From: an uncultured Mollicutes bacterium
Lineage (GTDB): Bacteria; Bacillota_I; Bacilli_A; RFN20; CAG-826
Length of the DNA: 64,000 bases
NCBI GenBank assembly: GCA_900545015.1
Contig: UQXJ01000003.1
Span: forward strand, 15,800 to 79,799
Direction: 5' to 3'
Shown here: positions 5,222 through 44,423 of the stretch, piece after piece
How positions within the stretch are numbered: the first letter of the stretch is position 1
Layout of the letters: each line of letters opens with the position of its first letter
The notes under the pieces: generated by a model
Told to the model about the DNA's origin: nothing
What the model saw: only the letters and a program-made list of their open reading frames with translations
Database searches by the model: none
Position numbers and translations under genes: made by a program

Positions 5222-5242
5222 CATTAAGATAGTATTAAGAAA
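5222..5242 (+). promoter_or_regulatory. direct-repeat motif copy 1: CATTAAgatagTATTAAgaaa
   Basis: Two hexamers start 11 bp apart. Lies 71 nt upstream of the 5313 ATG. A TAAAAT -10 candidate is at 5257-5262. Confidence 0.55.
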
Positions 5243-5312
5243 TTTATTTATTTTTATAAAATTTCATTTTAAGTCAATAAAATATATCCAATGAAAAGAG
5301 GGATTTAACTAT

Positions 5313-8300
5313 ATGAAAAAGAAAATTATTCCGATGGTAGCATTGGCAGGTGTCTTAAGTTTTGGAGCAATCTCGTTAGCAAGTTGTAAAGAAGAAACAC
5401 CTGTAGAGCCAGTAGAATTAGAATATAAAGTCAACGTAGTAAGCGTTGAAGGAGCAACTGTTTCAACAAGCGTTGCAAAAGCTAAAAAAGGTGAAATTGT
5501 CACTGTTAATGTTAATGTTACAGATACAGATAAAACATGTTTTGGCATTTTATTAAATGATAATACAGAAGTTACTGAAGTCGAAAAAAGTAAAACTTAT
5601 TCATTTAAGATGCCTGAAAGTGACGTCAGCGTAAAAGCAAATCTTGAATTTGTTCAAAAATTCGGAGTTATGGCTAATGTTAAAGGCGATGTCGAAGGCG
5701 CAAGTATTAAAGTAGATAAAGAAGTCGCTAAAGCTGGCGAAGAAGTTGTCGTTACGGTTGAAAATACTAACGCTGAATTTAAATATTCATCAATTTCTGG
5801 ACTTCCAGAAGGATTTAAAGAAGTTGAAGCTGGCGTAAAATATTCATTTGCAATGCCAGCACATAATGTTTTCTTAACATTAGAACTTTCCAAAGTTGAA
5901 ATATTTGGTGTTACAGTTAACGCAAGTGAAGGTGGTGTAGCAAGTGTTGATAAAACTGCTTACCACGAAGGCGATGCAATTAAATTATCATTAACGGCAA
6001 ATGCACATTTTGAAGTTAAATCAGTTGTTTTTAATGGAACAAAAGTTGCTGACGATCAATTAGGCGATGAAATTAGTTTCGTTGCTGCTAAAGAAAATGT
6101 AATTGAAGTTGTATTTGAACAAACAGAATTTAAAGCAACAGTTGTTAAAGTTCTTGGCGATACAGCTTCCTTTGTTAAATCAATGAGTGGAATTGAAGAA
6201 GGAGTTTTCTATAAAGTTGGCACAAAGCAAAAAATTAGCGTTCAATTTGACTCATCATATTATGTTTCGATGTTTAAATTGCAATTTGGTGGAAAGATTT
6301 ATGCTTTTACAAAGAATGCTGATGATTCAAAAATTGGTGAATGCGAAGTAGAAATTCCTGAAAAAGATTTTTCAACATTTGTATTTAAAGATACTTACAT
6401 GTCGTTACCTGAAGAAGGGGATGAAAGTATTGTGGTAAATGTTGATGCTATGGAAGGTGTCGAAGTTGTTGGAATTATCAGTGGAACTGCTTATAAATAT
6501 AGTAGTTATTTTAGTGTTAATTTATATCTCTTTGGTGGAGATAATGGCGTAAAAGTTAAAAGTGTTACGTATTATGATGGAGATGCTGAAGTTGGAAATA
6601 AAGCCGCATTTAGAGAAATGTCAGGACAAGTCGGCGTTTCTAGCATGAAACTTACTTCAAAATCTTTGAGATTGCATTTTGATGTTGATGTTATGAGCAA
6701 GAAAACAATTTCATATGTCGGAACAGATGGTTTAGCAGAAGGATATGGACTTCCATTATCAGCATTACCAGGTGAAACAGTTAAATTAAAATATGAATTA
6801 AAAGATGGCAAAAATAAATATTTGTCACAACTTAAAGTCACTGTTAAAGGAACTGGTGAGGTAATCGACGTTACAGTTACTGGCATGAATAAAGAGTTTA
6901 TGATGCCTAATGCAGATGTTGTTGTTGAATTTGTTCTTGAAGATACACCAACAATTCAATTTGAAAAAGTAGTAGGCGTCAAGGAAGTGAAATTTTATTC
7001 AGAATCTTCTCGTAAACCTGAAGCTGAGATCTTAAAAGCAGCACCTGGAAAAACGGTTTATGGCCGTGTTGTATTAGAAGATGGATACCTTATTAATGCT
7101 GTAAAATTTGATGGTACAAATATTACAAGTAGCTGGGGCTCTAAAAACGATTTTAGCTTTAAAATGACGGCAACAGGAAAAGTCACCTTTGATGTGGAAG
7201 AAGGTGTTACTGTTAGCGTTGAAGAAGTTACTGGAGGCAAATTCCTTTTAGCAGAGGGTGAATACAATACAGCAAACTCAACAAAGTTGGTTGTTAAACA
7301 AGGCGCTACATTATATGCCAAAGTTACACCTGATACAGGTTATAAATTTGTCAAGGCTGTTGATCAAGATGGCAATGATGTTAAACTTATAGAACCTACA
7401 TCCTATTCTTACTATCATAATTACTCATTTGCGGTTGCTACAACAGCAGGAAGCAAAGCATTAACTATCACTCCAGTTTTTGAAGCATATGCTAAGTCAA
7501 CTGTTACATTAGAAGTTGATGAAAGCCTTAAAAATGATCTTAAAGCATTCAGTTTAACAGGCTCAGTAAGTAAAGCTTCATTAAGCCTTGATTCAAAAAC
7601 ATCAAGTGAGTTCTTCGTTGATGAAGAAGTTTATGGAAATATTTCATTATCAAGTGATGCTATTAAAAATAAGATTTTCAGCGTAAGTTATGTTGCTGGC
7701 GGAAAAGAAACACCATTAGAATTTAATGGTGAACAAGGCATTTATACGCCACTCAAAAACTTCAAGATTAAAGATGCAAATGTTATTTTAAAAGTAACTG
7801 CTGTAGAGAAAAAAGTTGTTGGCGTAACATGTGTGGCTCCTAAAGAAGGATTTACATTCAAATATGCAGCAGATAGAACAACTAGCGAAGAAAAATTTTT
7901 AGATAAATTGCCGGTTGTTAAAGCAGGCAATGTACTAAGAATTAAAGTTATAGGCACTGTTTCAGAAAATTGTAAATTAGCTTATAAGATTACTGATGCT
8001 AGCGATAAAGATATAACAGAAAGTTTGAGCACCTCATTTGATTCTAAATCAGGAATGTTAACAATTGATAACTTACCAAATGAAGATATAAAAGTTGTCT
8101 TTAGTGAAGTTGAAGCTGTATTTAAAACATTTAAATTAACAGACAACTTACCAGAATATTGTGAACTAGATTACGCTTTAGTTTTTGCAGGCGGTGTAAG
8201 TGTCAAAGATGGCGATAAATTCGAAGTCGCAGAAATGAATATTAGTGTAAATGCATATGATACTCGCGCAGATGGACAAGCAGCATTCACATTAACAGTT

Positions 8301-8420
8301 AAAATCGGTGGTGTTGAATATAAAACTGTACAACATGAAGAATTTGATGATAATGATGCAACAGTAAAAATTCCTGCAAAAGATATTACAGGAGATGTTG
8401 AACTTATCATTTCTAAATAA
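5313..8420 (+). CDS. large surface lipoprotein built of repeated about 80-aa beta-sandwich (InlB B-repeat-like) modules
   Basis: Signal peptide + lipobox SLASC. At least 8 internal modules follow the pattern V.V....G..V.....A..GE.V.V.V......F.....NG......F.M....V.V.. (for example aa 38-115, 117-195, 198-270). Confidence 0.85.
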   Translation: MKKKIIPMVALAGVLSFGAISLASCKEETPVEPVELEYKVNVVSVEGATVSTSVAKAKKGEIVTVNVNVTDTDKTCFGILLNDNTEVTEVEKSKTYSFKMPESDVSVKANLEFVQKFGVMANVKGDVEGASIKVDKEVAKAGEEVVVTVENTNAEFKYSSISGLPEGFKEVEAGVKYSFAMPAHNVFLTLELSKVEIFGVTVNASEGGVASVDKTAYHEGDAIKLSLTANAHFEVKSVVFNGTKVADDQLGDEISFVAAKENVIEVVFEQTEFKATVVKVLGDTASFVKSMSGIEEGVFYKVGTKQKISVQFDSSYYVSMFKLQFGGKIYAFTKNADDSKIGECEVEIPEKDFSTFVFKDTYMSLPEEGDESIVVNVDAMEGVEVVGIISGTAYKYSSYFSVNLYLFGGDNGVKVKSVTYYDGDAEVGNKAAFREMSGQVGVSSMKLTSKSLRLHFDVDVMSKKTISYVGTDGLAEGYGLPLSALPGETVKLKYELKDGKNKYLSQLKVTVKGTGEVIDVTVTGMNKEFMMPNADVVVEFVLEDTPTIQFEKVVGVKEVKFYSESSRKPEAEILKAAPGKTVYGRVVLEDGYLINAVKFDGTNITSSWGSKNDFSFKMTATGKVTFDVEEGVTVSVEEVTGGKFLLAEGEYNTANSTKLVVKQGATLYAKVTPDTGYKFVKAVDQDGNDVKLIEPTSYSYYHNYSFAVATTAGSKALTITPVFEAYAKSTVTLEVDESLKNDLKAFSLTGSVSKASLSLDSKTSSEFFVDEEVYGNISLSSDAIKNKIFSVSYVAGGKETPLEFNGEQGIYTPLKNFKIKDANVILKVTAVEKKVVGVTCVAPKEGFTFKYAADRTTSEEKFLDKLPVVKAGNVLRIKVIGTVSENCKLAYKITDASDKDITESLSTSFDSKSGMLTIDNLPNEDIKVVFSEVEAVFKTFKLTDNLPEYCELDYALVFAGGVSVKDGDKFEVAEMNISVNAYDTRADGQAAFTLTVKIGGVEYKTVQHEEFDDNDATVKIPAKDITGDVELIISK

Positions 8421-8436: not shown

Positions 8437-8462
8437 CATAAAGGCTCTTCGGAGCCTTTATG
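8437..8462 (+). terminator. hairpin CATAAAGGCTC-ttcg-GAGCCTTTATG
   Basis: Perfect 11-bp stem directly after the stop. There is no strong T-run. Confidence 0.55.
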
Positions 8463-8574
8463 ACTGCTTAAAACCCTTACATTTGAATAAATTTGAAATT
8501 TTTATTTTTGATAAAAATGTAGCACTTTTTAATATAATTTTTCCGTAAAATAGTGAAAAATTCATGAAAGGTGA

Positions 8575-8595
8575 TGTTAAGATAGTGTTAAGAAA
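8575..8595 (+). promoter_or_regulatory. direct-repeat motif copy 2: TGTTAAgatagTGTTAAgaaa
   Basis: Hexamers are 11 bp apart. Lies 66 nt upstream of the 8661 ATG. Confidence 0.55.
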
Positions 8596-8660
8596 AAGTA
8601 TATTTTTAGAGTTAATAATGTTTTATAAATTAAAATATTCTTATGGATTGAGGTTAAAAT

Positions 8661-10016
8661 ATGAAATTTAAAAAAATATTTTTATTTTTATCAGTTTTGG
8701 CTTTAACAGGTTGTAATAATGTTAGTGTTCCTGAAGAAGATAAGACTGAAATTAGTGATTTACAAAAGGCGATAATTAATTTACGAAGTGGTTTCCATAT
8801 GAGTGGAATCAAAGAACAAATTTGCTTATCAAGTGAAAATGAAGAGTTGTTTAGAAATAAGTTCAAATACGATTATTCGTTCGAAAATAGTAGTGAAGAA
8901 ATTGCAACAAATCAAAAATATACATTCACTTATGCAGGCAAAGAACAAGATATTGAGATTTCAGTTGTTCGTGATCCTGATGGATTTGCTGCTCAAAGAT
9001 ATGTTAATTATAAAAATGAAATAGGTTTTTATAGAATTAGTGATAATGGTTATTATTCGTATTATGATGACTATTTCATGAATCCATTTTTACTTATTGA
9101 AGAAACGGATTTAACAAAAACAAAAGAAGAAAATGGAGAAGTTGCTTATTCTTTATTTAAAGATAAGTTAGACCTTTTTGATTATTACTTAACAGGTAAT
9201 TCTTTTCCTCTTCAATCAGTTGAATTAACTTTTAAAAACAATGTTCTAATGAGCGCAAAAACTGTTTCATCTAAATTTACTGGAAGTACAAAAGATGCTT
9301 CAACAGGATTCTATATTCCTTGTTCATGGACTTATGTTGCAAATTTATCTTTCGAAAATATTGGTAAAACTGCGATTGAAGGGCCTAAAAAGAGTGAAGA
9401 TCCAAAAATAGAAAAACTCGATAAACTTTTTTCTAGTGTTAAAGATAATTTTACTCTAGAAGCGACAATGTCTTTAAAGGGTGAAAGTACACCATTAAAT
9501 TCAAAAACAAGTTATTTTGATGGTTCGTCTTATTACATTGAAATGGATAAAGAAGATAAAACGAAGGATTATTTATATCATGAAGATCCATTTAAAAAAG
9601 ATGGATTATTATATGAATATAAATTCAATTCTGATTCAAAGCTATGGGAAAAGAGTAGTAATTCTTCTTACTCAAGTTATAACATTGATCCTCACGATAA
9701 GAGTATCTTTGTACCTCATCTAAAAGATGTGTCTTCATCATTATTCTTTAAACAAGCGGATGAAGATGGCTATTTTTGGTGTAATAACGATTATGCACAA
9801 GCATTTATTGGTGAAGGTTTCTTCTCAGATGGCGAATTACTTTCTTATTTTAGCGAAGGATATGTAACTGAAGCAAAATTAAAAGAAGATAATGGAGATA
9901 TTATTGTTAGCCTTGATTTCTATTTTCCTTATGATTCATCAACAATAGTTGAAATGACATATACTGCAAAATATTCACATATTGGAACAACTAAGATTCC
10001 AGATGTTGATTTATAA
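8661..10016 (+). CDS. lipoprotein, two-lobe paralog family member (451 aa)
   Basis: Lipobox LALTGC. Alignable by eye with the next gene: YKNEIGFY/YKNEVFLT, FMNPF/FPNPF, YIPCSW../YIPVNV.., ENIGKT/DNVGSA, DNFTLEA/DNYTLII. Confidence 0.85.
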   Translation: MKFKKIFLFLSVLALTGCNNVSVPEEDKTEISDLQKAIINLRSGFHMSGIKEQICLSSENEELFRNKFKYDYSFENSSEEIATNQKYTFTYAGKEQDIEISVVRDPDGFAAQRYVNYKNEIGFYRISDNGYYSYYDDYFMNPFLLIEETDLTKTKEENGEVAYSLFKDKLDLFDYYLTGNSFPLQSVELTFKNNVLMSAKTVSSKFTGSTKDASTGFYIPCSWTYVANLSFENIGKTAIEGPKKSEDPKIEKLDKLFSSVKDNFTLEATMSLKGESTPLNSKTSYFDGSSYYIEMDKEDKTKDYLYHEDPFKKDGLLYEYKFNSDSKLWEKSSNSSYSSYNIDPHDKSIFVPHLKDVSSSLFFKQADEDGYFWCNNDYAQAFIGEGFFSDGELLSYFSEGYVTEAKLKEDNGDIIVSLDFYFPYDSSTIVEMTYTAKYSHIGTTKIPDVDL

Positions 10017-10029
10017 GGAGGTAAAGAAA

Positions 10030-11460
10030 ATGAAAAAGAATTTATTAATTAGTTTAGGTTTATTAGCTATCATTGCTTTACCAAGTTGCGCAAATGAAGG
10101 AACTGATAAAGATAATGTAAAACTTGATGTTCCTACATATGTTAATGATTTTTTAAAGGAAGCAAGCGCTTCATATAAACTTAAAGCATTAGAAAAAGAA
10201 ATAGTTAAAAAAACAGATGGAACAACTATGTTTACAAATGAATATAGTTATAACATCACTTCATTAAGAGGCGAAAGACCATCTATTAAAGAAACATTTT
10301 CTAAATCAACAACAGAAGGAACAAGTTCATCAACAATAAGATATGTTAAAAATGAGCGTGGTTATGTATCTGTTGAAGGAATTAATTATAAAAATGAAGT
10401 TTTCTTAACTGAAGCTACTGATGGTGATGGAAAGAAACTAATTTATGATAAAGAATTTCCTAATCCTTTTGAATATTTAACTATTAATGATTTTGAAGCC
10501 ATTGAAGTTAATGGAAAAAGTATTAAAAAAGCTATTGAAGCTAGACCTACAACATCAACATTATTATTAAATAAAGATAAACAAGCGTTCTTTGCTAAAT
10601 ATTTACTTGGTATAGATTATACGATAGATAACGTAAAATTTAATTTCGTTATGAATAAAATTGATAGCATTCAAATTGATTCAGTTGTATCCGAAACAAG
10701 ATATCAAGATGCTTATACAAGTATGTATATTCCTGTTAATGTTAATTATGAAACAACTGTTTTAATTGATAATGTTGGTAGCGCTGAATTCGATGGTGCT
10801 AAACCTCATACAAGTAAAAATAAAGAAAGAGAAGACGCTTTAAAGAATGCACTTACAAATCTTGGTGATAACTACACTTTAATTATTAATGAGCATTATC
10901 AAGGCGAAAAAGGTAATTCTGAATTTGATTCTTATTGGTATTTCAATGGAAAAGATGCAATTTATCATCAACAACATTTAGATGATACGTCTAGAAAATT
11001 TGATTTATATTATAAAAAAGATCCATCTAAAGCAGATGATTTAATGTATATATATGATTTAAATGAAACAACTAATAAATGGGTTTATATTGATCCAACA
11101 AATTCACAATCATATAACGTTAGACCTAAAACATATGCTGAATTAGATACTAAAGCTAGATTAGTTGATCCAACTTTATTTGAATATGATGAAACTGAAA
11201 ATAAATATGTTGTAACTGATGGTTATGTTAGTGCTTTTTTAGGCAATGCTTTCTTGCCAGGTTGCTATCAAATTAAAGATTTCACAATTGGTGGAGGAAA
11301 TAAAGCTGAAGTAGTTTTAACAAGTGATGGAAAGATTGATACAATCACTGTTGGATTCTTTGAAGTTGATTCTAATGGATATGACATTAGTAGAGAATAC
11401 ACAATGCGCTTTATTAATATTAATAAAACAACAATACCTAGTTGGGTAGAGGGAGAATAA
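10030..11460 (+). CDS. lipoprotein, two-lobe paralog family member (476 aa)
   Basis: ATG at 10030 follows AAGGAGGT (10015-10022). Lipobox ALPSC. Paralog of 8661-10016. The track's 9982 start lies inside the previous gene. Confidence 0.85.
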   Translation: MKKNLLISLGLLAIIALPSCANEGTDKDNVKLDVPTYVNDFLKEASASYKLKALEKEIVKKTDGTTMFTNEYSYNITSLRGERPSIKETFSKSTTEGTSSSTIRYVKNERGYVSVEGINYKNEVFLTEATDGDGKKLIYDKEFPNPFEYLTINDFEAIEVNGKSIKKAIEARPTTSTLLLNKDKQAFFAKYLLGIDYTIDNVKFNFVMNKIDSIQIDSVVSETRYQDAYTSMYIPVNVNYETTVLIDNVGSAEFDGAKPHTSKNKEREDALKNALTNLGDNYTLIINEHYQGEKGNSEFDSYWYFNGKDAIYHQQHLDDTSRKFDLYYKKDPSKADDLMYIYDLNETTNKWVYIDPTNSQSYNVRPKTYAELDTKARLVDPTLFEYDETENKYVVTDGYVSAFLGNAFLPGCYQIKDFTIGGGNKAEVVLTSDGKIDTITVGFFEVDSNGYDISREYTMRFININKTTIPSWVEGE

Positions 11461-11462
11461 TT

Positions 11463-14198
11463 ATGAAAAAAAGAAAAGTTTTCCTTAGTGTAATTGCTTT
11501 AAGTGCTCTTCTTGGTGGATCAGTAATTAGTTGCGGTCAAAAAGAAGATCACCCTAGCATCGAAGAAAAAAAGAAAGAATTATTAATCGAAGCACCTTCT
11601 AAAGCATCTTTAGAGATAGGTGAAAGTATAACGTTAAGTTTAAAAACATCTAATTTAGATGAAGGAGATATCGTTAATTGGTACTCTAGTGATACAAATG
11701 TTTTAAGCGTCACGCAAAACGGAAAAGTTATTGCTTTAAAAGCTGGTATGGCTGATATTTATGCTAAAACTAGTGATGTAGAAAGTAATAAAGTTTCACT
11801 TGTAGTTAACGAAAAGAAAGTTATAAAAGTTACACTTAGCGAACCAAGTGATGACGAAATTGAAGTTGATGAAGTTATTAAACTTGATGTAAAAGTCGAT
11901 AATGCAGATTTAAAAGATGTTGCATTTACTTTAAGTGATCCAAGTTTAGGAAGTATTGATAACGAATTTAATTTCAAAGCTTTAAAAGAAGGAACATGCG
12001 TAATTTTTGCTAAAGTTGGCGAAGTAAAAAGTAATGAAATTACGATTAAAATACTTAAAAAGTCTACAGAACTAAGTTTAAATGTTAATTGTGATGACCA
12101 AGTTGTATTATTGATTGGTACTGAATTAAATATTAAAGCAACTGTAAAAGGTAACGTTAATAATTATCCAGTTGTCTTTAAAAGCTTAGATGAAAATGTT
12201 TGTAGTGTTTCTAGTGAAGGTTTAGTAAAAGCTTTAAAAGAAGGAACAACAAGTGTAGAAGTTTTTGTCGGACATATTAAAAAAGTTATTGAAATTATTG
12301 TTTTAAAAGAATATACAAAAGCAACAAGCGTAAGTTATGAAGTGAAAGAGATTGATGTTGCTTTAGGTGAAAAATTCGAGATTAAAAATGTAGAAATTTT
12401 ACCTAATACTGCAAAGCAAGAATTTACACTTGAAAGTTCAAATGAAGTTTATGTTTCAACTGAAGGCCATTTTGTAGTAGGCAAAAAAATAACAACTGAT
12501 CCTATTACAGTTAGCATAAAAGCAGATGGAGCATTATTTGCTTTAAAAGTTAATGTCATTAAAGCACAAGAAAAATATGGTGCTTACTTAACTGAAAAGC
12601 TAGGAAAATCTAAAGAGCAAGAACTAGTCAAAGCAAATTCTGGCGAATTAACGGTTAAAACACTTGATAATACAGGTAAAGAAACTCAATCTGATAATTA
12701 TAAATTTACTTCTTATAATGATGATAGAACTTTGACAACGATTACCAAAACTAGAAATAGTTCATATAGTGGAACGACAACAACGATTGAAAATTATGAA
12801 ATTGCTAAATTTGATAATAAACAAATTAGAGGTATTTCAAAATATGGCGAACCTGATGTTTTAACTTATAATTCCTTTGAAATTGATGAAAGCGATAGTT
12901 CATTGAATTCTTCAACTATAAATGATGCATCTAAAATGGGCTATTTTGGTAATTATACATATTTTGGAATGTCTAATTACATTGCTAAAAGTTTCTTTTC
13001 GGCTTCTTCATTAGAAAGTAAAAATGTTAAAGATGGAAGTTATATTTTTAGCGAAGTTGATAATACCGTTAAAGTTGATGCAATAATTGAACAATCATAT
13101 GGCGACACTTATAAATATAGCTTAACAATGAATTTTGAAGATTCTTTAATTAACTCATTTAATGCAACAGTTAGTAGATATACAAGTGATGATTACGACA
13201 ACGATAATCCATCAAGTTATGTATTAAAAGATCAAAAAGTTTATGAAGGAACTTTAAATGTTGGTGAAAAGCAAGCACCAACAAGTGAAATGAAAAAGTA
13301 CGAATCTTTCTACGCAACTTCATTTGATGTAGTTACTAAAGCATATAGAGACAGAAAATATGTTGAAACCAATGAATTTTATGTTGGTGAAAGTGTAAAT
13401 ATTGAACTTACAAATGTTTTACCTGCAACTTTTGAAAAGAATGTTGATAAGATGAGCGTCGAAATTTTAAACAATGAAGATGCAGTAAGAAAAACAACTT
13501 ATGGTTTTAGTTTTATTAAGCCGGTAGATGAATTAAAAATCTCAGTTAAAACTAAAAATGTATCAAAAGAAGTTACATTAAAAGCAAGTTATCCTAAAGC
13601 AACAACACTTTCTTATACTGGTAGTGAATATTTATTAGCAGGCGATGCTTATACAAGCAAAGTAAGTTATTCATCTTCATCAGCAGTAGTTGATTTTGAA
13701 GCAACATTAAGTAACAACACAAGTAACGCCACAATTGATATGAAAGCAGATGGAAACTTCACAATTAATGCAAGTCAAGCTGGTTCTGTAGACGTATTAT
13801 TTAAAGAAAAGAAGAGTGGACTTACAATATCAAAGAAGTTCTATTCATTTGCTAATACTGATGATGGAATTTTAGATATGATATTTGGCTCGACAATTAG
13901 TGTTGAAAAAGGTTACACATCAGCAGTTTCTAACTTAGTATTTATTAAAGATGATGGTGCAAAGAGTGGCAAGATTTCATATTCTTATTGCGATAATGAT
14001 TACGAAGAAACTTATAACATTAGTGATACGTGGACATTTGAAAATAAGAAATTTGTAATTAAATCTGGCTCAACTGATAATTACACAATGTCTATTGATT
14101 TTGCTACAAGTGTTTCAAAGCATTATGATCTTTTAGCGGTAAAGGTTTCTTGCGGATACGATAACGCAACATTTAGACTTAGACTTACTCACAAATAA
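11463..14198 (+). CDS. lipoprotein with N-terminal Big_2 Ig-like repeats and a family-type C-terminal region (911 aa)
   Basis: ATG 11463 is 2 nt after the previous stop. Lipobox VISC. Three or four Big_2-like modules (..VLSVTQNGKVIALKAGMADIYA.., ..VCSVSSEGLVKALKEGTTSVEV..). Confidence 0.85.
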   Translation: MKKRKVFLSVIALSALLGGSVISCGQKEDHPSIEEKKKELLIEAPSKASLEIGESITLSLKTSNLDEGDIVNWYSSDTNVLSVTQNGKVIALKAGMADIYAKTSDVESNKVSLVVNEKKVIKVTLSEPSDDEIEVDEVIKLDVKVDNADLKDVAFTLSDPSLGSIDNEFNFKALKEGTCVIFAKVGEVKSNEITIKILKKSTELSLNVNCDDQVVLLIGTELNIKATVKGNVNNYPVVFKSLDENVCSVSSEGLVKALKEGTTSVEVFVGHIKKVIEIIVLKEYTKATSVSYEVKEIDVALGEKFEIKNVEILPNTAKQEFTLESSNEVYVSTEGHFVVGKKITTDPITVSIKADGALFALKVNVIKAQEKYGAYLTEKLGKSKEQELVKANSGELTVKTLDNTGKETQSDNYKFTSYNDDRTLTTITKTRNSSYSGTTTTIENYEIAKFDNKQIRGISKYGEPDVLTYNSFEIDESDSSLNSSTINDASKMGYFGNYTYFGMSNYIAKSFFSASSLESKNVKDGSYIFSEVDNTVKVDAIIEQSYGDTYKYSLTMNFEDSLINSFNATVSRYTSDDYDNDNPSSYVLKDQKVYEGTLNVGEKQAPTSEMKKYESFYATSFDVVTKAYRDRKYVETNEFYVGESVNIELTNVLPATFEKNVDKMSVEILNNEDAVRKTTYGFSFIKPVDELKISVKTKNVSKEVTLKASYPKATTLSYTGSEYLLAGDAYTSKVSYSSSSAVVDFEATLSNNTSNATIDMKADGNFTINASQAGSVDVLFKEKKSGLTISKKFYSFANTDDGILDMIFGSTISVEKGYTSAVSNLVFIKDDGAKSGKISYSYCDNDYEETYNISDTWTFENKKFVIKSGSTDNYTMSIDFATSVSKHYDLLAVKVSCGYDNATFRLRLTHK

Positions 14199-14213: not shown

Positions 14214-14247
14214 TAAGGTGGCTTATTAAAAAAAGGTCACCTTTTTT
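14214..14247 (+). terminator. rho-independent terminator
   Basis: AAGGTG...CACCTT stem followed by TTTTT. Confidence 0.6.
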
Positions 14248-14491
14248 GACACAAAAAATTATCATTTAATGACAAAAACCCTGTAAAAGCTAGATTTTTA
14301 GTGGATTATTAGTATAAAAATAGTTGATTTACAGTAGTTATAAAAATTAATTTTTTATTCTTAAAAACAGAACTTTAAAGTGCGTTTTTTTTAAAAAAAT
14401 ATGACCTTGAATTGTAATATGAATCGTAAAGAAAAAAACTTACAATTTTTTCAATCTTTTTTCTTTAGAAAAAGTGAATTTTTTAGTACAA

Positions 14492-14512
14492 TATTAAAAT
14501 TGTATTAAGAAA
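14492..14512 (+). promoter_or_regulatory. direct-repeat motif copy 3: TATTAAaattgTATTAAgaaa
   Basis: Hexamers are 11 bp apart. Lies 69 nt upstream of the 14581 ATG. Confidence 0.5.
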
Positions 14513-14580
14513 CTTATTTCTCTTTTGAACAATGCATATAAAGTAAGATAATAAGTCGTCTCAATAAGGAGGTTTATATT

Positions 14581-16647: not shown

Positions 16648-16653
16648 TTTTAC

Positions 16654-30359: not shown

Positions 30360-30360
30360 T

Positions 30361-37891: not shown

Positions 37892-37917
37892 TCATATTTA
37901 ATTTAAAATTGAAATAT

Positions 37918-37949
37918 ACCCTAGAAAATTAAACTTCTAGGGTTTATTT
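37918..37949 (+). terminator. post-oppA hairpin ACCCTAGAA/TTCTAGGGT + TTATTT
   Basis: Perfect 9-bp stem between oppA2 and oppB2. Confidence 0.6.
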
Positions 37950-37970
37950 CGCTATATAAAAGGAGGAATT

Positions 37971-39017
37971 ATGACTAAATATGTAATAAAAAGAATATTA
38001 TTAGTCTTTCTCACAGCATTTATAGTTTTATCATTAACTTATATTCTCTTGTGTTGTTTGAAAGTTGATCTTCCATTTTTTACATCAGAAGGTCAAAAAG
38101 TCGCTTATTTGACTAATCAATGGCAAAAAGGATTTTTAGTAAGAGAAACGATGCCAACTGAAAAGTATGGTGAATTATTTGGTTCTTATACTGTTGGAAG
38201 TGGCGTTAGCCAAGTAACTTATTACTACTATCAAAGACCTATCATGGATAGATATTTTAGTTTTCTCCAAGGTGTATTCACTCGTTGGGATTGGGGTACA
38301 TCAATTGGATTTGAAGTTGGGAGACCTACAATAGATATCCTTATGTCTCGTTTACCTACAACAATTTTAATTAATATTATAAGTGTTATATTTTCTGTTC
38401 CCTTAGGAATTGGCTTAGGCATATGGTGCGCTCTAAAAAAAGACTCAGTATTTGATAATGTCATGCAAGTCTTAATGATGGTTGTTATTTCAATTCCAAG
38501 CTTTGTTTTAATTAGCTATCTCATCATGATGGCAGCAAATATTTCTTGGATACCAACATTCTGGCCACAATCAACTGATCCATTATATTTAAGAGTTGGT
38601 GCCTTTGTTGTTCCAGTTTTGGCTTTATCACTTGGCTCAATATTTGGTTATGCTAGATTTGTTAGAGCAGAACTTTGTGAAGTTTTAGAAAGTGATTATT
38701 TATTACTTGCAAGAACAAAAGGCTTAACAAGACGTCAATCAATTTTACGTCACGCTTTAAGAAATTCAATGGTGCCTGTTTTGCCAATGGTTGTTAGTGA
38801 ATTTATTTCAATTCTTGGAGGAAGTATGATTCTTGAGAACTTATACCAAATTCCAGGTGTTGGACAACTTTATATGGCAGCATTTAATGCAAAAGACTAT
38901 TCATTACTTATGACAGATATGGCTTTTTACACATTAATTGGATTACTTGCTGCAATCGTCGTTGATTTATCATATGGATTTATCGATCCACGTATTAGAA
39001 TGGGGGCAAAGAAATAG
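37971..39017 (+). CDS. oppB: oligopeptide ABC permease OppB (copy 2)
   Basis: RBS AAAGGAGG. Paralog of 27047-28102 (YLLLARTKGLTRRQ.I.RHALRN.MVP, DPRIRMGAK). Confidence 0.92.
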   Translation: MTKYVIKRILLVFLTAFIVLSLTYILLCCLKVDLPFFTSEGQKVAYLTNQWQKGFLVRETMPTEKYGELFGSYTVGSGVSQVTYYYYQRPIMDRYFSFLQGVFTRWDWGTSIGFEVGRPTIDILMSRLPTTILINIISVIFSVPLGIGLGIWCALKKDSVFDNVMQVLMMVVISIPSFVLISYLIMMAANISWIPTFWPQSTDPLYLRVGAFVVPVLALSLGSIFGYARFVRAELCEVLESDYLLLARTKGLTRRQSILRHALRNSMVPVLPMVVSEFISILGGSMILENLYQIPGVGQLYMAAFNAKDYSLLMTDMAFYTLIGLLAAIVVDLSYGFIDPRIRMGAKK

Positions 39018-39019
39018 TT

Positions 39020-41014
39020 ATGGAAGAAAAAAATAAAATTAATGAAGTAATTATTGATGGCGAAGGTCATGAAATTACTTATAACGAAAATGACTTTGAC
39101 TTTGTCCAAAGTGACACATCAATTCACGATTTAAAACTTAAATCAAAACCAACAACTTTCTTAAAAGACGCAATTCGTAGGTTTTTTAAATCAAAATCTG
39201 CAATTGTTGGTTTTTCAATTGTTGGCATCTTATTCCTTGGTTCACTTATAATCCCGCTTTGTACTCCAGATCAAGGCGTCTTTAATGTTGATAAAGATGG
39301 TGGAGGATCAAGTAGCGAATTTAATCTTGTTCCTAAATTATTCAATGCGGGTTCAGGATTCTGGGATGGTACAGTTAAAAGAACAAAAATTCTTTACGAT
39401 AAAGAAAATGAAGTACCAGTTGGATATAGAGAAGGAACTTTCTTTAACTTAAAATCATATGAAGAAGAAGCAAGTGGCATTTTCAGTACATATGCTAGTG
39501 GTGGTTACTTAAATGTATATCAAACAAATAGCGAAAAAGATGCAAATTATTATTCACCTTTGATCGACTTTGATTTTACAAATAATTATTCATTAAGCTA
39601 CAACTTACTCGATGAAGCATATGGCAATTATGAATTTACAGGAATTAAAGTTTCATTATTTGATGGAAATAATCATTATTATCTTGTTGGTAAAAACAAC
39701 TTTTCAAAAGATTTAAATGTAAATATTAACATCAATGAAACTTTAACTAATAATGGTTATGATTTATCTACAATATCAAAAGCAAAAATCTATTTTGATA
39801 TTCAAAAATCAGATAATACAAAAACAGGGAATGTCTTTATTAAAGATTGCTTAATTTCAAGTAATAATAGTGAAGAAAAAGAAACTTTAGATGCTATCAG
39901 CTTTAAAGATGGCAATGAAGTTATGTGTAGAGAAGCTGGAACAAGCAACGCTTGGGCTGGTGATTTTGGTAAAACTACATACAAAATAACTGTTCCATAT
40001 TGCGATTTTACATTTGATATGTACGAATCAGTTTATGGACTTGTTGACAAAACATATGGTTATCTTGAACTTCAAGTTTTTGCTTCAAAAGGTGGTATGA
40101 AAATTAATTTTTCTTCTACGGATTATAAGGCAACAGCAGATAAAGAAGTTTTAAAGAATAGATTCCAAATTTTAGATGAAAATGAATGTCCAATCGCTGA
40201 AGTTGTAGAACAAGTTGGCGATGCAACATATAATTCATCAACAAAAAGATGGACTGGATATTCATTAAAAGTAAAAATCGAAAATTATAAAGTTCTTGGA
40301 TATTCATCAATGCCAAGATATATCTTTGGAACAAACGGCTCTGGTAAAGATTATCTTAAATTAATGTTTAAAGGATTAAGATTCTCATTACTTTTAGCAA
40401 TTGGTGTTAGCTTTGTTAATATTGTAATTGGTCTTATCTGGGGTTCAATTTCTGGATATTTTGGTGGATGGACAGATATTATTATGGAAAGAATCTGTGA
40501 TATTATCAGTGGCCTTCCAACAATGGTTATTATTACTTTATGTATTCTTTATGGTAGAGAATTAAACTGGGGTAGCTTAAGCGATGTCTTAGCTTTAATG
40601 ATTTCATTATTTATGACAGGATGGATGGGAGTTAGTGCTAGAACTAGAACTCAATTCTATCGTTATAAAGGAAGAGAATATATTTTAGCTAGTAGAACTT
40701 TAGGCGCAAAAGATGGTCGATTAATCTTCAAACATATTTTACCTAACTCAGCAGGAACAATTATTACTTCATCAGTCTTAATGATTCCTAGCGTAATTTA
40801 TACTGAAGCTAGTATTGCATATCTTGGATTAGGTTTACAAAATCAAGTATTATTTGGTGTCGTTTTAAGTGAAGCGAGCACATATTATAGTGGTGAAAAG
40901 AGCTATTTATTACTTATTCCTACCGTTGTTATGATGTTCTTACTTGTTTCATTTAACTTATTCGGAAACGGATTAAGAGATGCATTTAACCCACAACTTA
41001 AAGGAGGAGAATAA
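39020..41014 (+). CDS. oppC: oligopeptide ABC permease OppC (copy 2) with about 350-aa extracytoplasmic insert
   Basis: Same architecture as 28095-30359. Conserved LVPKLFNAGSGFWDGT at the start of the insert and a canonical C-terminal core. Confidence 0.9.
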   Translation: MEEKNKINEVIIDGEGHEITYNENDFDFVQSDTSIHDLKLKSKPTTFLKDAIRRFFKSKSAIVGFSIVGILFLGSLIIPLCTPDQGVFNVDKDGGGSSSEFNLVPKLFNAGSGFWDGTVKRTKILYDKENEVPVGYREGTFFNLKSYEEEASGIFSTYASGGYLNVYQTNSEKDANYYSPLIDFDFTNNYSLSYNLLDEAYGNYEFTGIKVSLFDGNNHYYLVGKNNFSKDLNVNININETLTNNGYDLSTISKAKIYFDIQKSDNTKTGNVFIKDCLISSNNSEEKETLDAISFKDGNEVMCREAGTSNAWAGDFGKTTYKITVPYCDFTFDMYESVYGLVDKTYGYLELQVFASKGGMKINFSSTDYKATADKEVLKNRFQILDENECPIAEVVEQVGDATYNSSTKRWTGYSLKVKIENYKVLGYSSMPRYIFGTNGSGKDYLKLMFKGLRFSLLLAIGVSFVNIVIGLIWGSISGYFGGWTDIIMERICDIISGLPTMVIITLCILYGRELNWGSLSDVLALMISLFMTGWMGVSARTRTQFYRYKGREYILASRTLGAKDGRLIFKHILPNSAGTIITSSVLMIPSVIYTEASIAYLGLGLQNQVLFGVVLSEASTYYSGEKSYLLLIPTVVMMFLLVSFNLFGNGLRDAFNPQLKGGE

Positions 41015-41016
41015 AA

Positions 41017-42999
41017 ATGGAAGAAAAAGTATTATCAGTAAATGATTTACATGTCTCCTTTAAGACAGATAGAGGAATTGTAAAAGCTGTTAGAGGAGTT
41101 TCATTTGATCTTTATAAAGGTGAAACTCTTTGTATTGTTGGCGAATCTGGTTCAGGAAAATCAGTTACTAACAAAGCAATCATGGGAATAAGTGCAAAAA
41201 ATGCAATTATTGAAAGCGGCTCAATTCTTTATGAAGGTGAAGATTTAACTAAAGTTAGTGAAGAAGAATTCCATCGTATTAGAGGACATAAAATTGGAAT
41301 GATTTTCCAAGACCCTTTAAGTGCTTTAAATCCTGTTATGAAAATAGGGAAGCAAATCACTGAAGCAACTCTTGTTAATAGAAATATTTTAAAGAGAAGA
41401 TATGAAGAATTAATCGCTAACGATTTAATTCGCTATAGAAATAATTTTTCAAACACTGAATTCAATATAAATAAGCTCGAATCCTATATTGAGCAAAACG
41501 AAAAAACTATTAAGAAATTTGGCGAATTAAGTAAAAAAGTTTCAAAAATTGATAAGAAATTAGCTAATCCTGATTTACAAGGTGAAAAATCAATTGAACT
41601 TAATGACTTAAAGGCTAATTTAGAAAATGAAATTGCTGACTTAGTTTCATCGAATGTTGATTTCTATGATTTCTTAATGAAAGACAAAACAAATGAAATC
41701 GATTCTTTAAAAGACAAGTTAGAAAAATTATCTAAGAAAACTTTTGACAACGAAGTTTATAAAAACATTAATGACGATGAAATTAAATTTATCAATGATC
41801 TTCTTGAATTCTATAAAAAAGATTTCGTTGTCTTTAAAAAAGATAATGTTTCTGACTCTTTAAAAGTTCAAAATGAAATTTTTAAAGAATTAATTAAGGT
41901 TTATAAACTTAGTTGTAAAGCTAAAAAACAAAATTTAAAGGTAGCTTTAAATAATAAGAAAAAAGAAGCAAAAGCTGAAGTTGATAAATATTATTTAGAA
42001 ATTAAAAAAGTTCATGATGACAAAATGACCGAATTAAATACTGAACTTTTAAAAATTGAAGAAAAAATGAAAAGCGTTTTATCTTCATTATCAGAAGATG
42101 AACGCAACGAACTTTTAAGTGATATCAAATTCAATAAAGTTTTAAAAGAAAAAGAGAAAAAGTTCAATAAAAAAACTAAAGAAATGAATCTTTCTAAAGT
42201 TACAAAAAGGGAAGTAAATTATAAAGAATTAAAAAATCATGAATATGCTGAACTTTTAAAAGAAAAAGAAGCACTTGAAATAAAAATAGAAGAAGAAAAA
42301 GCTGATTTTGTTAATAAAACTAAAGTAACAAAAGCAGAAGCTAAAAAGATGGCTTTAGAAGTTATGAAAGAAGTCGGCATTCCTCTTCCTGAAAAACGTT
42401 TTAAGCAATATCCATTTGAATTTTCAGGTGGTATGAGACAACGTATCGTCATTGCAATTGCTTTAACCGCAAATCCAGATATTTTAATTTGTGATGAACC
42501 TACAACTGCACTTGATGTTACAATTCAAGCTCAAATTCTTGATTTAATTAATAAATTAAAAGAAGAACGTCACTTAAGCTGTATCTTTATTACTCACGAT
42601 TTGGGCGTTGTTGCTCATATGGCTGATAGAGTTGCTGTAATGTATGCTGGAAGAATTGTAGAATATGGAAAAGTTGATGAAATATTCTATGAACCTAAAC
42701 ATCCATATACTTGGGCACTTTTATCATCAATTCCTGATATTAATAGTAAAGAAAAACTTGAAGCAATCCCTGGAACACCTCCAGATATGTTATTCCCTCC
42801 AAAAGGCGATGCGTTTGCTTTAAGAAGTAAATATGCAATGGCTATTGATTTTAAATATCAACCACCATTCTTTAATGTTAGCGATACTCACTATGCTGCA
42901 ACTTGGCTGTTAGCTAAAGGCGCACCAAGTGTAAAAATGCCAGCGATTGTTGAAAAGAGAATTGAAGAAGCTAAAAAGCGTATGAAGGAGGAAAAATAG
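41017..42999 (+). CDS. oppD: oligopeptide ABC ATPase OppD with about 300-aa K/E-rich insert (660 aa)
   Basis: Walker A GESGSGKS, Q-loop MIFQDP, signature FSGGMRQR, Walker B ICDEPTTALD. A charged heptad-like insert lies between the Q-loop region and the signature. Confidence 0.93.
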   Translation: MEEKVLSVNDLHVSFKTDRGIVKAVRGVSFDLYKGETLCIVGESGSGKSVTNKAIMGISAKNAIIESGSILYEGEDLTKVSEEEFHRIRGHKIGMIFQDPLSALNPVMKIGKQITEATLVNRNILKRRYEELIANDLIRYRNNFSNTEFNINKLESYIEQNEKTIKKFGELSKKVSKIDKKLANPDLQGEKSIELNDLKANLENEIADLVSSNVDFYDFLMKDKTNEIDSLKDKLEKLSKKTFDNEVYKNINDDEIKFINDLLEFYKKDFVVFKKDNVSDSLKVQNEIFKELIKVYKLSCKAKKQNLKVALNNKKKEAKAEVDKYYLEIKKVHDDKMTELNTELLKIEEKMKSVLSSLSEDERNELLSDIKFNKVLKEKEKKFNKKTKEMNLSKVTKREVNYKELKNHEYAELLKEKEALEIKIEEEKADFVNKTKVTKAEAKKMALEVMKEVGIPLPEKRFKQYPFEFSGGMRQRIVIAIALTANPDILICDEPTTALDVTIQAQILDLINKLKEERHLSCIFITHDLGVVAHMADRVAVMYAGRIVEYGKVDEIFYEPKHPYTWALLSSIPDINSKEKLEAIPGTPPDMLFPPKGDAFALRSKYAMAIDFKYQPPFFNVSDTHYAATWLLAKGAPSVKMPAIVEKRIEEAKKRMKEEK

Positions 43000-43000
43000 T

Positions 43001-44365
43001 ATGAAAGAAAACAATAAAAAAGATGAAAAAATATTTTTCCAAGATGATAAGACTTATGTAGCTCAAGATGCAAATCTCTTTAAAGGTGATGAAAACGATT
43101 CTGTTGAACATCCTGTAACAAGCGCTGATGAAATCGCAAAAGAAGAAAAAGCCACTGAAGAGGAAGCTTTAGAATCTATTCGTCATAAATGCAAATTTAA
43201 AGAAGAATATGTTCAAGAAAAAGCAATTTTAAGTGTCAATCACTTAAAACAATATTTCTTCTTTGGAAAAGGACCAACAAAATATAAATTAAAAGCTGTT
43301 CATGATGTTTCATTTAAAGTTTATGAAGGTGAAACATTTGGTATTGTTGGAGAATCTGGTTGTGGTAAAACAACAACTGGACGTTCAATTATTAGATTAT
43401 ATGACATCACAAGTGGTTCAATTTATTATAAAGGCCAAAGAATTGCTGCTGGTAGTAGATGGAATGAAAAAGAAATTAAATACACTTTAATTCGTAAGAA
43501 TAAAATTTTAAAAGAATTAAAAGAATCTTTTAAAAAAGGTGAAATTGATGAAGCAACATATAATGCTAAAAAAGAAGAAGCAATTAAACATGCTAATGAA
43601 ATTGTTAAAGTTCAAAAAGAAAAAATTAAGCAAATTAAGCATGATGATAAACATGTCGATCCTAAATTATTAAGAGAAATTCAAATGATCTTCCAAGATC
43701 CAATTGATTCTCTTGATCCTAGAATGACTGTTGAAAGTATTATTAGTGAAGGATTGCAAATTCAAGGCTTTAAAAATAAAAAAGAAAATCATAAGAAAGT
43801 AGTTGAAGCTTTAGAAAGAGTTGGCTTAATTGAAGATTATGCTAATCGTTATCCACATGAATTCTCTGGTGGACAAAGACAAAGAATTGGCATTGCTCGT
43901 GCACTAATTATGAATCCTAAATTATTGATTTGTGATGAACCAATTTCTGCACTTGATGTCTCGATTCGTGCTCAAATTATTAATTTACTTGATGATTTAA
44001 AGAAAGAAATTGGCCTTTCAATTATATTTATTGCTCATGACCTTTCTGTTGTTAAATATTTCTGCGATAGAATTGCTGTTATGTATTTTGGTGAAATTGT
44101 TGAGCTTGCAACAAGTGATGAATTATTTAAGCATCCACTTCACCCTTATACAAAATCACTTCTGAGTGCAATTCCTCTTCCAAATCCAGAACTTGAAAAG
44201 AAGAGAAAGAGAATTATTTATAATCCAGAAGAAGCACATGACTATAGTAAAGAAAAACCAAGAATGGTTGAAATCTTGCCTGGCCATTTCATCTTAGCAA
44301 ATACTGAAGAAATTGCTAAATATAAGGAAGAAATTAAAGAATTAGACCTTACTAATGTAAAATAG
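43001..44365 (+). CDS. oppF: oligopeptide ABC ATPase OppF (454 aa)
   Basis: GESGCGKTT, QMIFQDP, FSGGQRQR, ICDEPISALD. About 90-aa N-terminal extension and about 65-aa insert after Walker A. Confidence 0.93.
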   Translation: MKENNKKDEKIFFQDDKTYVAQDANLFKGDENDSVEHPVTSADEIAKEEKATEEEALESIRHKCKFKEEYVQEKAILSVNHLKQYFFFGKGPTKYKLKAVHDVSFKVYEGETFGIVGESGCGKTTTGRSIIRLYDITSGSIYYKGQRIAAGSRWNEKEIKYTLIRKNKILKELKESFKKGEIDEATYNAKKEEAIKHANEIVKVQKEKIKQIKHDDKHVDPKLLREIQMIFQDPIDSLDPRMTVESIISEGLQIQGFKNKKENHKKVVEALERVGLIEDYANRYPHEFSGGQRQRIGIARALIMNPKLLICDEPISALDVSIRAQIINLLDDLKKEIGLSIIFIAHDLSVVKYFCDRIAVMYFGEIVELATSDELFKHPLHPYTKSLLSAIPLPNPELEKKRKRIIYNPEEAHDYSKEKPRMVEILPGHFILANTEEIAKYKEEIKELDLTNVK

Positions 44366-44402
44366 TGAAAATTTTTCAATAAAAAGTATAAAATTTTCAA
44401 AA

Positions 44403-44423
44403 AGTTAAGAAATTGTTAAAAAA
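44403..44423 (+). promoter_or_regulatory. direct-repeat motif copy 5: AGTTAAgaaatTGTTAAaaaa
   Basis: Hexamers are 11 bp apart. The second hexamer starts 24 bp upstream of the TTGACA -35 of the L-box promoter. Confidence 0.4.

Follow-up and report, generated by a model that had tools for sequence, protein, structure and literature searches.

A phased tandem octamer as the probable activator site of a surface-proteolysis and peptide-uptake regulon in an uncultured gut Mollicutes bacterium

The closest described counterparts of the repeat examined here belong to regulators of several families. In streptococci, CiaR controls the surface protease gene htrA, and its boxes lie ~10 bp upstream of the -10 element, where they replace the -35. 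In Bacillus subtilis, tandem AT-rich repeats upstream of the promoter serve the NarL-type DegU in regulating the subtilisin-type protease gene aprE, and the MarR-type ScoC controls both proteases and opp. The CodY system of Lactococcus places a lactocepin-like S8 protease (prtP) and the opp permease under one regulator, a repressor overlapping promoters that acts through a 15-bp palindromic box, AATTTTCWGAAAATT. By consensus, the boxes of SaeR, WalR and CiaR appear nearest to the present motif. SaeR, an OmpR-family regulator of Staphylococcus aureus, binds GTTAA-N6-GTTAA, in which the TTAA is essential and the leading G dispensable (PMC5083920). The WalR/VicR box reads TGTWAH-N5-TGTWAH, and its footprinted bmsH site has TATTAA as one half-site (PMC4168254). 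CiaR binds TTTAAG-N5-TTTAAG (PMC9603419).

The repeat compared with these lies in the window, by which we mean the whole 64,000-nt stretch analysed, from an uncultured Mollicutes bacterium. Its DNA is AT-rich (29% G+C). An earlier note, made from the sequence alone, had reported five copies of one motif upstream of surface-lipoprotein and transporter operons, together with a weaker variant at 52142-52157. All are present as reported, the five copies being:

5222-5242, plus strand: copy 1, CATTAAGAtagTATTAAGAaa, intergenic, upstream of the B-repeat lipoprotein gene 5313-8420
8575-8595, plus strand: copy 2, TGTTAAGAtagTGTTAAGAaa, upstream of the lipoprotein triplet 8661-14198
14492-14512, plus strand: copy 3, TATTAAAAttgTATTAAGAaa, upstream of the lipoprotein-lipoprotein-S8 protease operon 14581-23338
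34765-34785, plus strand: copy 4, TATTAAGAcagTATTAAGAaa, upstream of the oppA2-oppBCDF module 2, 34880-44365
44403-44423, plus strand: copy 5, AGTTAAGAaatTGTTAAAAaa, before the L-box promoter, unsupported as a functional copy

In all five the hexamer starts are 11 bp apart and the orientation is that of the downstream operon, just as first described. Copies 1-4 end 65-94 nt 5' of the first start codon, and the first product of each of their operons has a lipobox. The transcript of the S8 protease operon possibly reads on into DUF3899-opp module 1. Copy 1 is identical in sequence in two other strains.

The exact pattern TRTTAA-N5-TRTTAA-RAAA, to which copies 1 and 5 are one-mismatch matches, occurs three times in the window against 0.02 expected. 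The earlier note had named a similar density in shuffled sequence as the outcome that would overturn it; none of 100 shuffles reached three exact matches. The core hexamer pattern alone is weakly enriched (three matches vs. 0.51 expected; 2 of 100 shuffles reach three). A matrix of 22 nt, trained solely on oppA2-upstream sites of 14 other species and hence independent of the window, scores copies 1, 2, 3 and 4 at 15.2, 15.1, 14.1 and 21.4 bits, respectively, and copy 5 at ~1 bit, so that four of the five reported copies hold as one motif and the fifth does not. Five window matches reach at least 12 bits, against 0.66-0.92 expected from Markov simulations of order 1, 3 and 5. Four of them, intergenic and co-oriented, are copies 1-4; the fifth lies at 57872 on the minus strand, within a coding region. 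In the same scan oppA1, the TetR/iron-transport operon and the island genes had no copy in front of them, in agreement with the earlier note, and the 52142 variant dropped out, having a 10-bp period and no score with the independent matrix.

Beyond the window, the oppA2 orthologue is preceded by the repeat in 14 other GTDB species representatives, whose OppB identity is 61-73%. These relatives belong to the same uncultured gut Bacilli clade, which is Candidatus Onthovivens-like. The DNA flanking the oppA2-upstream repeat is unalignable between species. Information content falls to near zero in the flanks and peaks solely at both units and at the -10, at offsets 39-45. The repeat is thus kept in at least 15 species with randomised flanks, although such orthologous sites are not statistically independent, unalignable as their flanks are. 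Across ~430 kb of related loci, no match other than these sites reaches 18 bits, and every one of the sites is intergenic and on the plus strand. Even in a distant relative (L109) the repeat stands upstream of an SBP_bac_5 oppA gene. Copy 4 is the core, clade-wide member. Strong sites also occur at positional orthologues of the S8 operon of copy 3 (L149, 25.8 bits; L157, 30.2 bits; L158, 26.6 bits), and one relative, L150, has no site before its S8 operon. The oppA1 orthologues of L149, L150 and L151 are without the repeat. This distribution of sites supports a link, conserved across species, between surface proteolysis (the S8 operon) and peptide uptake (opp module 2). Conservation of copies 1 and 2 ends with close relatives; the copy 2 orthologue is a degenerate site in L159 and absent in L160 and L161, and copy 2 is therefore lineage-specific.

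The conserved unit is an 8-mer, TATTAAGA, present twice as a tandem pair, and the element can be written (A)TATTAAGA-N3-TATTAAGA. The units occupy positions 0-7 and 11-18 of the aligned sites, the junction at positions 8-10 being variable, and the 11-bp period, one helical turn, is unchanged in 18 of 18 sites. The TTAA core is invariant in both units (18/18), and the G of the unit is nearly so (17/18 and 16/18 for the two units). These guanines, G7 and G18, lie on one strand without a mirrored C, which makes the element a direct repeat rather than a palindrome. Position 2 of each half-site is A in 17 of 18 sites, giving a clade consensus of TATTAA; the oppA2-upstream form of the 14 other species is ATATTAAGA-yrr-TATTAAGAtt. 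Conserved sites always have exactly two units, never an array, and some orthologues (L009, L017, L025, L027) carry 1.5 sites, that is, three half-sites. A T-rich tract follows the repeat at offsets 11-16. As read from the sequence, two identical tandem units one helical turn apart are the architecture of sites for OmpR/PhoB-type winged-helix regulators, as had been proposed: the half-sites are similar, of 6-8 bp, head-to-tail and 10-11 bp apart from centre to centre, and they lie in or just upstream of the target promoters in fixed helical phase to the predicted transcription starts. The family of the regulator is a more tentative assignment, possible but somewhat short of even odds.

The motif cannot name its regulator, since direct repeats of AT-rich hexamers come close to the consensus of several response regulators at the same time. 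With SaeR it shares direct repeats of 11-bp period, and the TTAA essential to SaeR is invariant here; the leading G is A in the clade and G solely in copies 2 and 5, the resemblance being one of sequence only. In placement too the two agree: the sites precede promoters of genes for proteases and for secreted or surface proteins, which SaeR mostly activates, and some SaeR targets likewise have 1.5 sites. Unlike the SaeR box, the conserved unit here runs on to AAGA (TATTAAGA), and the genes downstream are those of a peptide permease and of lipoprotein/protease operons, in a non-pathogenic gut bacterium with a reduced genome. No saeRS-like genes were seen in the sequence searched. The WalR/VicR box is likewise a hexamer pair with a 5-nt spacer. 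Copy 2 fits TGTWAH exactly, as the earlier note had remarked, but it is the only copy that does: the strict consensus fails against a clade form with A at position 2 of either half-site, and WalR targets cell-wall hydrolases, the targets here being opp, lipoprotein and S8 protease operons. For CiaR, an OmpR-type activator that binds a direct repeat, the motif contains ATTAAG-N5-ATTAAG, one position off and with the same spacing (PMC9603419). The strict CiaR consensus failed as well: where CiaR has T as the first base, the hexamer of the motif has A (17 of 18 sites), and the repeat ends 39 nt before the -10 instead of ~10.

In grouping a lactocepin-like protease with the permease, the locus recalls the CodY system. 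Genomes of the RFN20 type lack several amino-acid pathways and depend on oligopeptide uptake (PMC7301438), so that the grouping suits an organism obliged to import peptides. The boxes differ, palindromic in CodY and a direct repeat here, and the CodY box is not enriched in the window (26 matches with at most three mismatches vs. 35 expected); the ~120 nt preceding each of the four operons hold a single three-mismatch match in all, at 5249-5263, downstream of copy 1. DegU and ScoC offer a similar parallel, the one with an extracellular subtilisin-type protease under tandem repeats, the other with one regulator on proteases and opp, but they belong to other regulator families, and neither consensus is conserved here.

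What sets the element apart from a loosely placed box is its promoter geometry. The predicted boxes, with the motif-less oppA1 promoter as a contrast case, are:

5278-5283, plus strand: TAAAAT, -10-like hexamer of copy 1, offset 40
8631-8636, plus strand: TAAAAT, -10-like hexamer of copy 2, offset 40
14547-14552, plus strand: GATAAT, -10-like hexamer of copy 3, offset 39
14525-14552, plus strand: TTGAAC-16-GATAAT, promoter of copy 3
34822-34827, plus strand: TAAATT, -10-like hexamer of copy 4
34795-34827, plus strand: predicted weak oppA2 core promoter, with a -35-like TTGTTT/TTTTCA at ~34795-34804 and a second -10 candidate, TATATT, at 34816-34821
23828-23855, plus strand: TTGACA-16-TATTAT, oppA1 promoter, without the motif

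The distance to the -10 had been thought to vary between 22 and 44 nt. This was wrong: the -10-like hexamer of copies 1-4, and of most orthologues, begins 39-41 nt past the second hexamer of the repeat. With the threshold set to 4.5 bits, it is found at offsets 39-40 in 11 of 20 sites; the other 1360 site-offset positions hold ~6 such matches, which corresponds to ~0.18 expected at offsets 39-40. Across 18-20 sites the signal is position-specific at offsets 39-45. Because the spacing is fixed, the element is a positioned upstream activator-type site, and the same distance would place the repeat at about -67 to -49, a range derived from -10 boxes that are predicted, and in AT-rich DNA. Some 13 nt separate the end of the repeat from the -35, a weak one that has at most four of six matches at all 23 motif-bearing promoters. 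TTGACA or TTTACA is found instead at motif-less promoters, namely those of oppA1, of S8 in one-module relatives and of the copy 2 orthologues in L160 and L161.

The sites themselves are genuine: selection has conserved them, they keep phase with the -10, and they are restricted to these promoters. From them we infer that a regulator binds, to which family it belongs, that it activates and where transcription starts. With a probability of roughly 60%, we read the repeat as the upstream activator site of a tandem-binding factor, probably of OmpR/PhoB type, that serves a proteolysis and peptide-uptake regulon. Its parts differ in strength: that the repeat is a functional cis-regulatory site bound by protein is very probable, and that the effect is activation is the likelier of the two signs. 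The factor would bind as a pair, head to tail and on the same helical face, its sites adjoining from upstream sigma-70-type promoters with a recognisable -10 and a poor -35, and once bound would activate by recruiting RNA polymerase. The most probable candidate is a winged-helix response regulator of the OmpR/PhoB family, which would have its gene in another part of the genome. The conserved core of the regulon would be the oppA2-oppBCDF oligopeptide permease, to which a subset of species, including this one, would add the operon of two surface lipoproteins and a lactocepin-like S8 protease; this species would further have recruited two lipoprotein operons through copies 1 and 2.

Of the competing explanations, the one that survives best, though unlikely, is a real protein-binding site for another type of factor or with the opposite sign, be it NarL/LuxR-type, AraC-type, MarR/ScoC-type, a receiver-less membrane-bound winged-helix protein (ToxR/CadC-like), or a repressor or anti-activator upstream of the promoter. 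Searches with OmpR and PhoB (tblastn) and Pfam found no response-regulator gene in the window, as had been noted before, nor in ~17 kb of adjoining contig or ~35 related loci, which favours another factor. So does a palindromic core, AATATT, that occurs twice in the motif, with the reverse strand of the sites scoring 7-10 bits, and so does the junction of the commonest variant, GATAATATT, which fits the B. subtilis consensus RATANTATY of ScoC, a regulator of just such genes. Against this, what is invariant is a pair of identical units on the same strand, copies 2, 3 and 4 break RATANTATY, and the junction varies. For a simple repressor, a site ending where this one does would be unusual, and the weak -35 of every motif-bearing promoter, set against the consensus boxes of motif-less ones, speaks for activation. 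For the main reading there is anecdotal support from unrelated metagenome contigs, in which a repeat of this type precedes one gene for an OmpR-type regulator (L029) and several for KdpD-like kinases (L078, L089, L104, L116), cases too few for enrichment.

A bolder version, which we consider rather improbable, makes the TATTAAGA repeat the operator of a lineage-specific master activator, a functional replacement of CodY and not a classical two-component regulator. If true, such an activator would govern the whole of extracellular peptide acquisition (surface protease, lipoproteins and Opp) in these reduced-genome, Mollicutes-like gut Bacilli. The factor might be a winged-helix protein, orphan or anchored in the membrane, or might belong to a new family of DNA-binding proteins able to sense the supply of peptides or amino acids directly, and its regulon would grow by de novo gain of sites, as with copies 1 and 2.

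It is very unlikely that the repeat is part of the core promoter, whether an UP element, an extended -35 or the promoter of an alternative sigma factor. Its fixed distance to the -10, the T-rich tract, and the overlap of about -67 to -49 with the classical UP-element zone would suit such a role. UP elements, though, are A/T-only tracts at -57 to -38 with no invariant G, whereas identical 8-mers with a near-invariant G are found here; two identical boxes 11 bp apart fit no -35/-10 sigma architecture; and the repeat is limited to a handful of operons with related functions, the strong oppA1 and L-box promoters close by having none. Absence of function, be it chance in DNA of this composition, the remnant of a duplicated promoter cassette or an 11-bp microsatellite, draws on the weak enrichment of the core pattern, the AT-rich genome and the true 11-bp tandem arrays of TTATTAAGATA that a metagenome scan found in other organisms, but is largely refuted already by the cross-species footprint and hardly credible given the excess of exact matches, the recovery of copies 1-4 by the independent matrix, the constant two units, orientation and -10 phasing, and the flanks of the four window copies, which share no extended homology. 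Repeated short leader motifs are known for TRAP and HutP, and action at the RNA level, in which an RNA-binding protein would recognise tandem sites within a long 5' leader starting further upstream, is equally far-fetched in view of the phased -10 downstream of the repeat, which leaves 14-45 nt between the inferred start and the start codons, the terminator hairpins upstream of copies 1-3 (5150-5182, ~8441-8460 and ~14226-14246), and the lack of a conserved promoter or an Rfam match 5' of the repeat.

Returning to the activator site, the repeat is most likely a docking site that adds a new example to a familiar kind of switch; its value lies in annotation and comparative regulation, the mechanistic design being familiar and the principle not new. 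The bacteria that carry it are uncultured and have small genomes; they are common in the guts of humans and of animals, and are thought to depend on imported oligopeptides (PMC7301438). An operator common to a peptide permease and a lactocepin-like surface protease is a first handle on the regulation of nutrient acquisition in such an organism, and the matrix is ready for regulon prediction in hundreds of metagenome-assembled genomes. The sites also make a clear example of regulon turnover, in which a core opp target is joined by species-specific recruitment of lipoprotein operons.

The earlier note had drawn amino-acid uptake into the same regulon through copy 5. The coupling of surface proteolysis with peptide uptake is supported; this third arm is not. 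Besides its negligible score, copy 5 differs between strains in its first G, the L-box promoter downstream of it has a consensus TTGACA (44438-44443), and one relative with the same L-box operon (L016) has no repeat at the orthologous promoter. The element that does act there is the following:

44475-44639, plus strand: lysine riboswitch (L-box), Rfam RF00168, 79.8 bits

With its terminator hairpin at 44656-44681, the L-box controls the amino-acid ABC transporter operon 44703-47385 on its own.

The tandem repeat upstream of the lipoprotein and transporter operons is a real, conserved and precisely positioned putative upstream operator, which on comparative sequence evidence would define, in an uncultured lineage of gut bacteria, a regulon for proteolysis and peptide uptake. 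The element type itself is already well known. An earlier note on this DNA was largely right in its observation and in the kind of element proposed; its promoter geometry, its WalR match and the amino-acid-uptake arm of its regulon did not hold. All five repeat sequences that it reported are present in the window, in the following gene order, with predicted −10 boxes for copies 1 to 4.

Segment 1: TetR and iron ABC transporter, methyltransferase
Segment 2: copy 1 (5222–5242, + strand; −10 box TAAAAT, 5278–5283), then the B-repeat lipoprotein
Segment 3: copy 2 (8575–8595, + strand; −10 box TAAAAT, 8631–8636), then three lipoproteins
Segment 4: copy 3 (14492–14512, + strand; −10 box GATAAT, 14547–14552, with TTGAAC at 14525), then two lipoproteins, the S8/PA-domain protease (1446 aa), DUF3899 and opp module 1
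Segment 5: a second DUF3899 gene, copy 4 (34765–34785, + strand; −10 box TAAATT, 34822–34827), then opp module 2
Segment 6: copy 5 (44403–44423, + strand), then the L-box and an amino-acid ABC transporter
Segment 7: Sir2, tRNA-Leu and the island

The window has a G+C content of about 29%, and its ORFs read well with genetic code 11. Human-gut metagenome contigs carry proteins identical to its products, and the nearest GTDB species representatives, with OppB identities of 61–73%, are MAGs that bear the label Candidatus Onthovivens or uncultured Bacilli. We take the lineage to be one of RFN20-type, Mollicutes-like gut bacteria. Members of the RFN20-type lineage are reported to have small genomes and few amino-acid biosynthesis pathways, and to rely on oligopeptide uptake (PMC7301438).

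Within the window, the full pattern matches three times versus 0.02 expected; the bare hexamer pair is weakly enriched (3 vs. 0.51 expected). Because the full pattern had been set after the sites had been seen, an independent test was sought. Loci around OppB2 relatives were fetched, one genome per species, and in 14 species ATATTAAGA-(T/C)NN-TATTAAGATT lies upstream of the oppA2 orthologue, 60–112 nt from the start codon, in surrounding intergenic DNA that cannot be aligned. The anchored profile confines its information to two identical 8-mers 11 bp apart, a T-rich patch and a −10-like box; the true unit is thus TATTAAGA, and not the TRTTAA plus trailing RAAA first described. A more distant relative, L109 (Sir2 69%, OppD 60% identity), has the repeat upstream of a canonical oppA of the SBP_bac_5 family; relatives of the L020/L021 type lack the oppA2 site. 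A third repeat unit was rejected, the extra half-site of some orthologues showing no conservation, and so was a ScoC-like RATANTATY element at the unit junction, whose positions vary. No Rfam family covers the repeat sites, only the L-box and tRNA being matched.

A 22-nt matrix, trained on the 14 foreign sites only and on none from the window, gives copies 1, 2, 3 and 4 scores of 15.2, 15.1, 14.1 and 21.4 bits. Five window matches reach at least 12 bits, versus 0.66–0.92 in Markov simulations; the fifth (57872) lies inside the coding region of a minus-strand surface-protease operon and is the sole match there. Across some 430 kb of related loci, all matches of at least 18 bits are oppA2 sites, intergenic and co-oriented.

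The distance from repeat to −10 box had been thought variable. Anchoring on the second hexamer reveals a fixed spacing: in 11 of 20 sequences a −10-like hexamer scoring 4.5 bits or more starts 39 or 40 nt after it, and the other 1360 site-offset positions hold about six. The remaining sites mostly bear, in that position, a weaker TAnnnT. With the predicted −10 box set as −12 to −7, the repeat spans approximately −67 to −49 relative to the predicted transcription start. All motif-bearing promoters match the −35 consensus at no more than four of six positions, versus TTGACA-16-TATTAT at the motif-less oppA1 promoter, TTTACA-type promoters at motif-less S8 genes of one-module relatives, and TTGACA at the motif-less copy-2 orthologues of L160 and L161. 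A weak −35 with the repeat, set against consensus boxes without it, would be the signature of activator-dependent promoters; repression rather than activation is the competing reading. Site score and −35 quality do not correlate (Spearman ~0), and the categorical contrast between motif-bearing and motif-less promoters is the sole −35 relation that holds.

For copy 4, the gene order S8 protease–DUF3899–repeat–oppA is widespread among relatives. For copy 3, the comparison set comprised species with an S8 protease 50–54% identical to that of the window: positional orthologues before the lipoprotein–lipoprotein–S8 operon score 25.8 (L149), 30.2 (L157) and 26.6 bits (L158), in L151 a moderate site lies one more gene upstream, the S8 operon of L150 has no site before it, and L156 is truncated. 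Copy 2 is lineage-specific, with a decayed site and a consensus −35 at the 60%-identical orthologue in L159, no conservation past it, and no repeat at the orthologues in L160 and L161. The copy 1 sequence is identical in other strains. Copy 5, on which amino-acid uptake had been added to the regulon, is rejected as a member: it scores about 1 bit, its L-box promoter has a perfect TTGACA, and the L-box orthologue in L016 has a TTGACA-N17-TATAAT promoter and lacks the repeat. Its operon is already under a lysine riboswitch. The weaker variant at 52142–52157, also rejected, has no matrix score, lies inside the tRNA-Leu island and does not look functional. A second short motif, ATAGTGAA(AA) at 8549–8560 and 44361–44372 and AAGTGAA near copy 3 (14471–14477), precedes copies 2, 3 and 5 by 20–45 nt and recurs upstream of the L016 L-box promoter (about 17208–17217); either a further operator or a chance occurrence would explain it.

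Two identical same-strand units one helical turn apart point to a head-to-tail pair of DNA-binding domains, the arrangement of OmpR/PhoB-type regulators. Among published consensuses, the closest are those of SaeR (GTTAA-N6-GTTAA, its TTAA essential and its G dispensable; PMC5083920), WalR/VicR (TGTWAH-N5-TGTWAH; PMC4168254) and CiaR (TTTAAG-N5-TTTAAG; PMC9603419). The clade consensus departs at one invariant position from the strict WalR consensus and at one from that of CiaR, so the repeat is filed under neither, and the WalR match once proposed lapses. A tblastn search of the window and every locus, with OmpR and PhoB of E. coli as queries, returned noise only, and the contig extended by about 8–9 kb on each side holds no regulator genes beyond the TetR and XRE genes of the window. 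Since the window, its flanks and the related loci contain no candidate regulator gene, we infer the family from site architecture, and put binding by an OmpR/PhoB-type factor at slightly under even odds; a NarL-, AraC- or MarR-type factor is the alternative. In lactic acid bacteria, systems that pair a protease with opp are usually regulated by CodY; here the CodY box shows no enrichment as a shared element, and CodY control is not indicated.

A pattern scan across metagenomes matched at least 120 contigs. Most of those listed come from unrelated organisms or are 11-bp tandem arrays, with L109 the sole clear relative, and among them repeats before two-component genes (L029, KdpD-like kinases) are too few for enrichment. 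In unrelated contigs L078 (6119), L089, L104 and L116, a repeat of the same type, ATGTTAAGAcaATGTTAAGA, precedes a gene for a KdpD-like histidine kinase by 40–53 nt. In L029, TTGTTAAGAtgtTATTAAGA (1088–1107, minus strand) stands some 140 nt upstream of a gene for an OmpR-type response regulator, and this gene has its own TTGACA-N17-TATAAT promoter. A possible reading of these loci is autoregulation of two-component operons that carry a related box. In six contigs from other organisms (L033, L051, L055, L119, L129, L145), an 11-bp unit, TTATTAAGATA / TTATTAAGATC, forms true tandem arrays with up to about 10 copies; the exact-pattern search thus also catches microsatellite-like repeats.

A DUF3899 gene, encoding a small multi-pass membrane protein, precedes each opp module (23391–23831 and 34323–34739). 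The order S8 protease–DUF3899–oppA is kept in more than 10 species (related loci L007–L027), and this conservation suggests that DUF3899 is functionally part of the peptide-uptake system. Directly 3′ of the S8 protease stop codon lies a single perfect half-site ATATTAAGA, then a G+C hairpin (GGGGCTAG...CTAGCCCC) without a T-run (23345–23379). G+C-rich hairpins directly 3′ of oppA1 (26933–26954) and oppA2 (37918–37943) are probably partial terminators or stabilisers, yielding more binding protein than permease. In the 5′ leaders of four oppA2 orthologues (L008, L010, L012, L025), an inverted repeat TTAGAAGA-N(12–15)-TCTTCTAA is conserved between the predicted −10 box and the ribosome-binding site; the window species lacks it. 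The oppD and oppF ATPases of module 1 are fused in one 1291-aa ORF (30352–34227), a fusion also present in relatives, and those of module 2 are separate (41017–42999 and 43001–44365). The second surface-protease operon (57281–62486, minus strand) lacks the repeat. Its gene order is XRE-type HTH, then a lipoprotein-like protein of 730 aa and a papain-family (C1) peptidase that bears lectin and B-repeat domains. The region 48270–57125, in which tRNA-Leu(CAG) precedes a Fic-domain gene, two AAA_14/DUF4143 ATPases, a 718-aa familyless protein and an MscS-like channel, looks like an island integrated at a tRNA gene.
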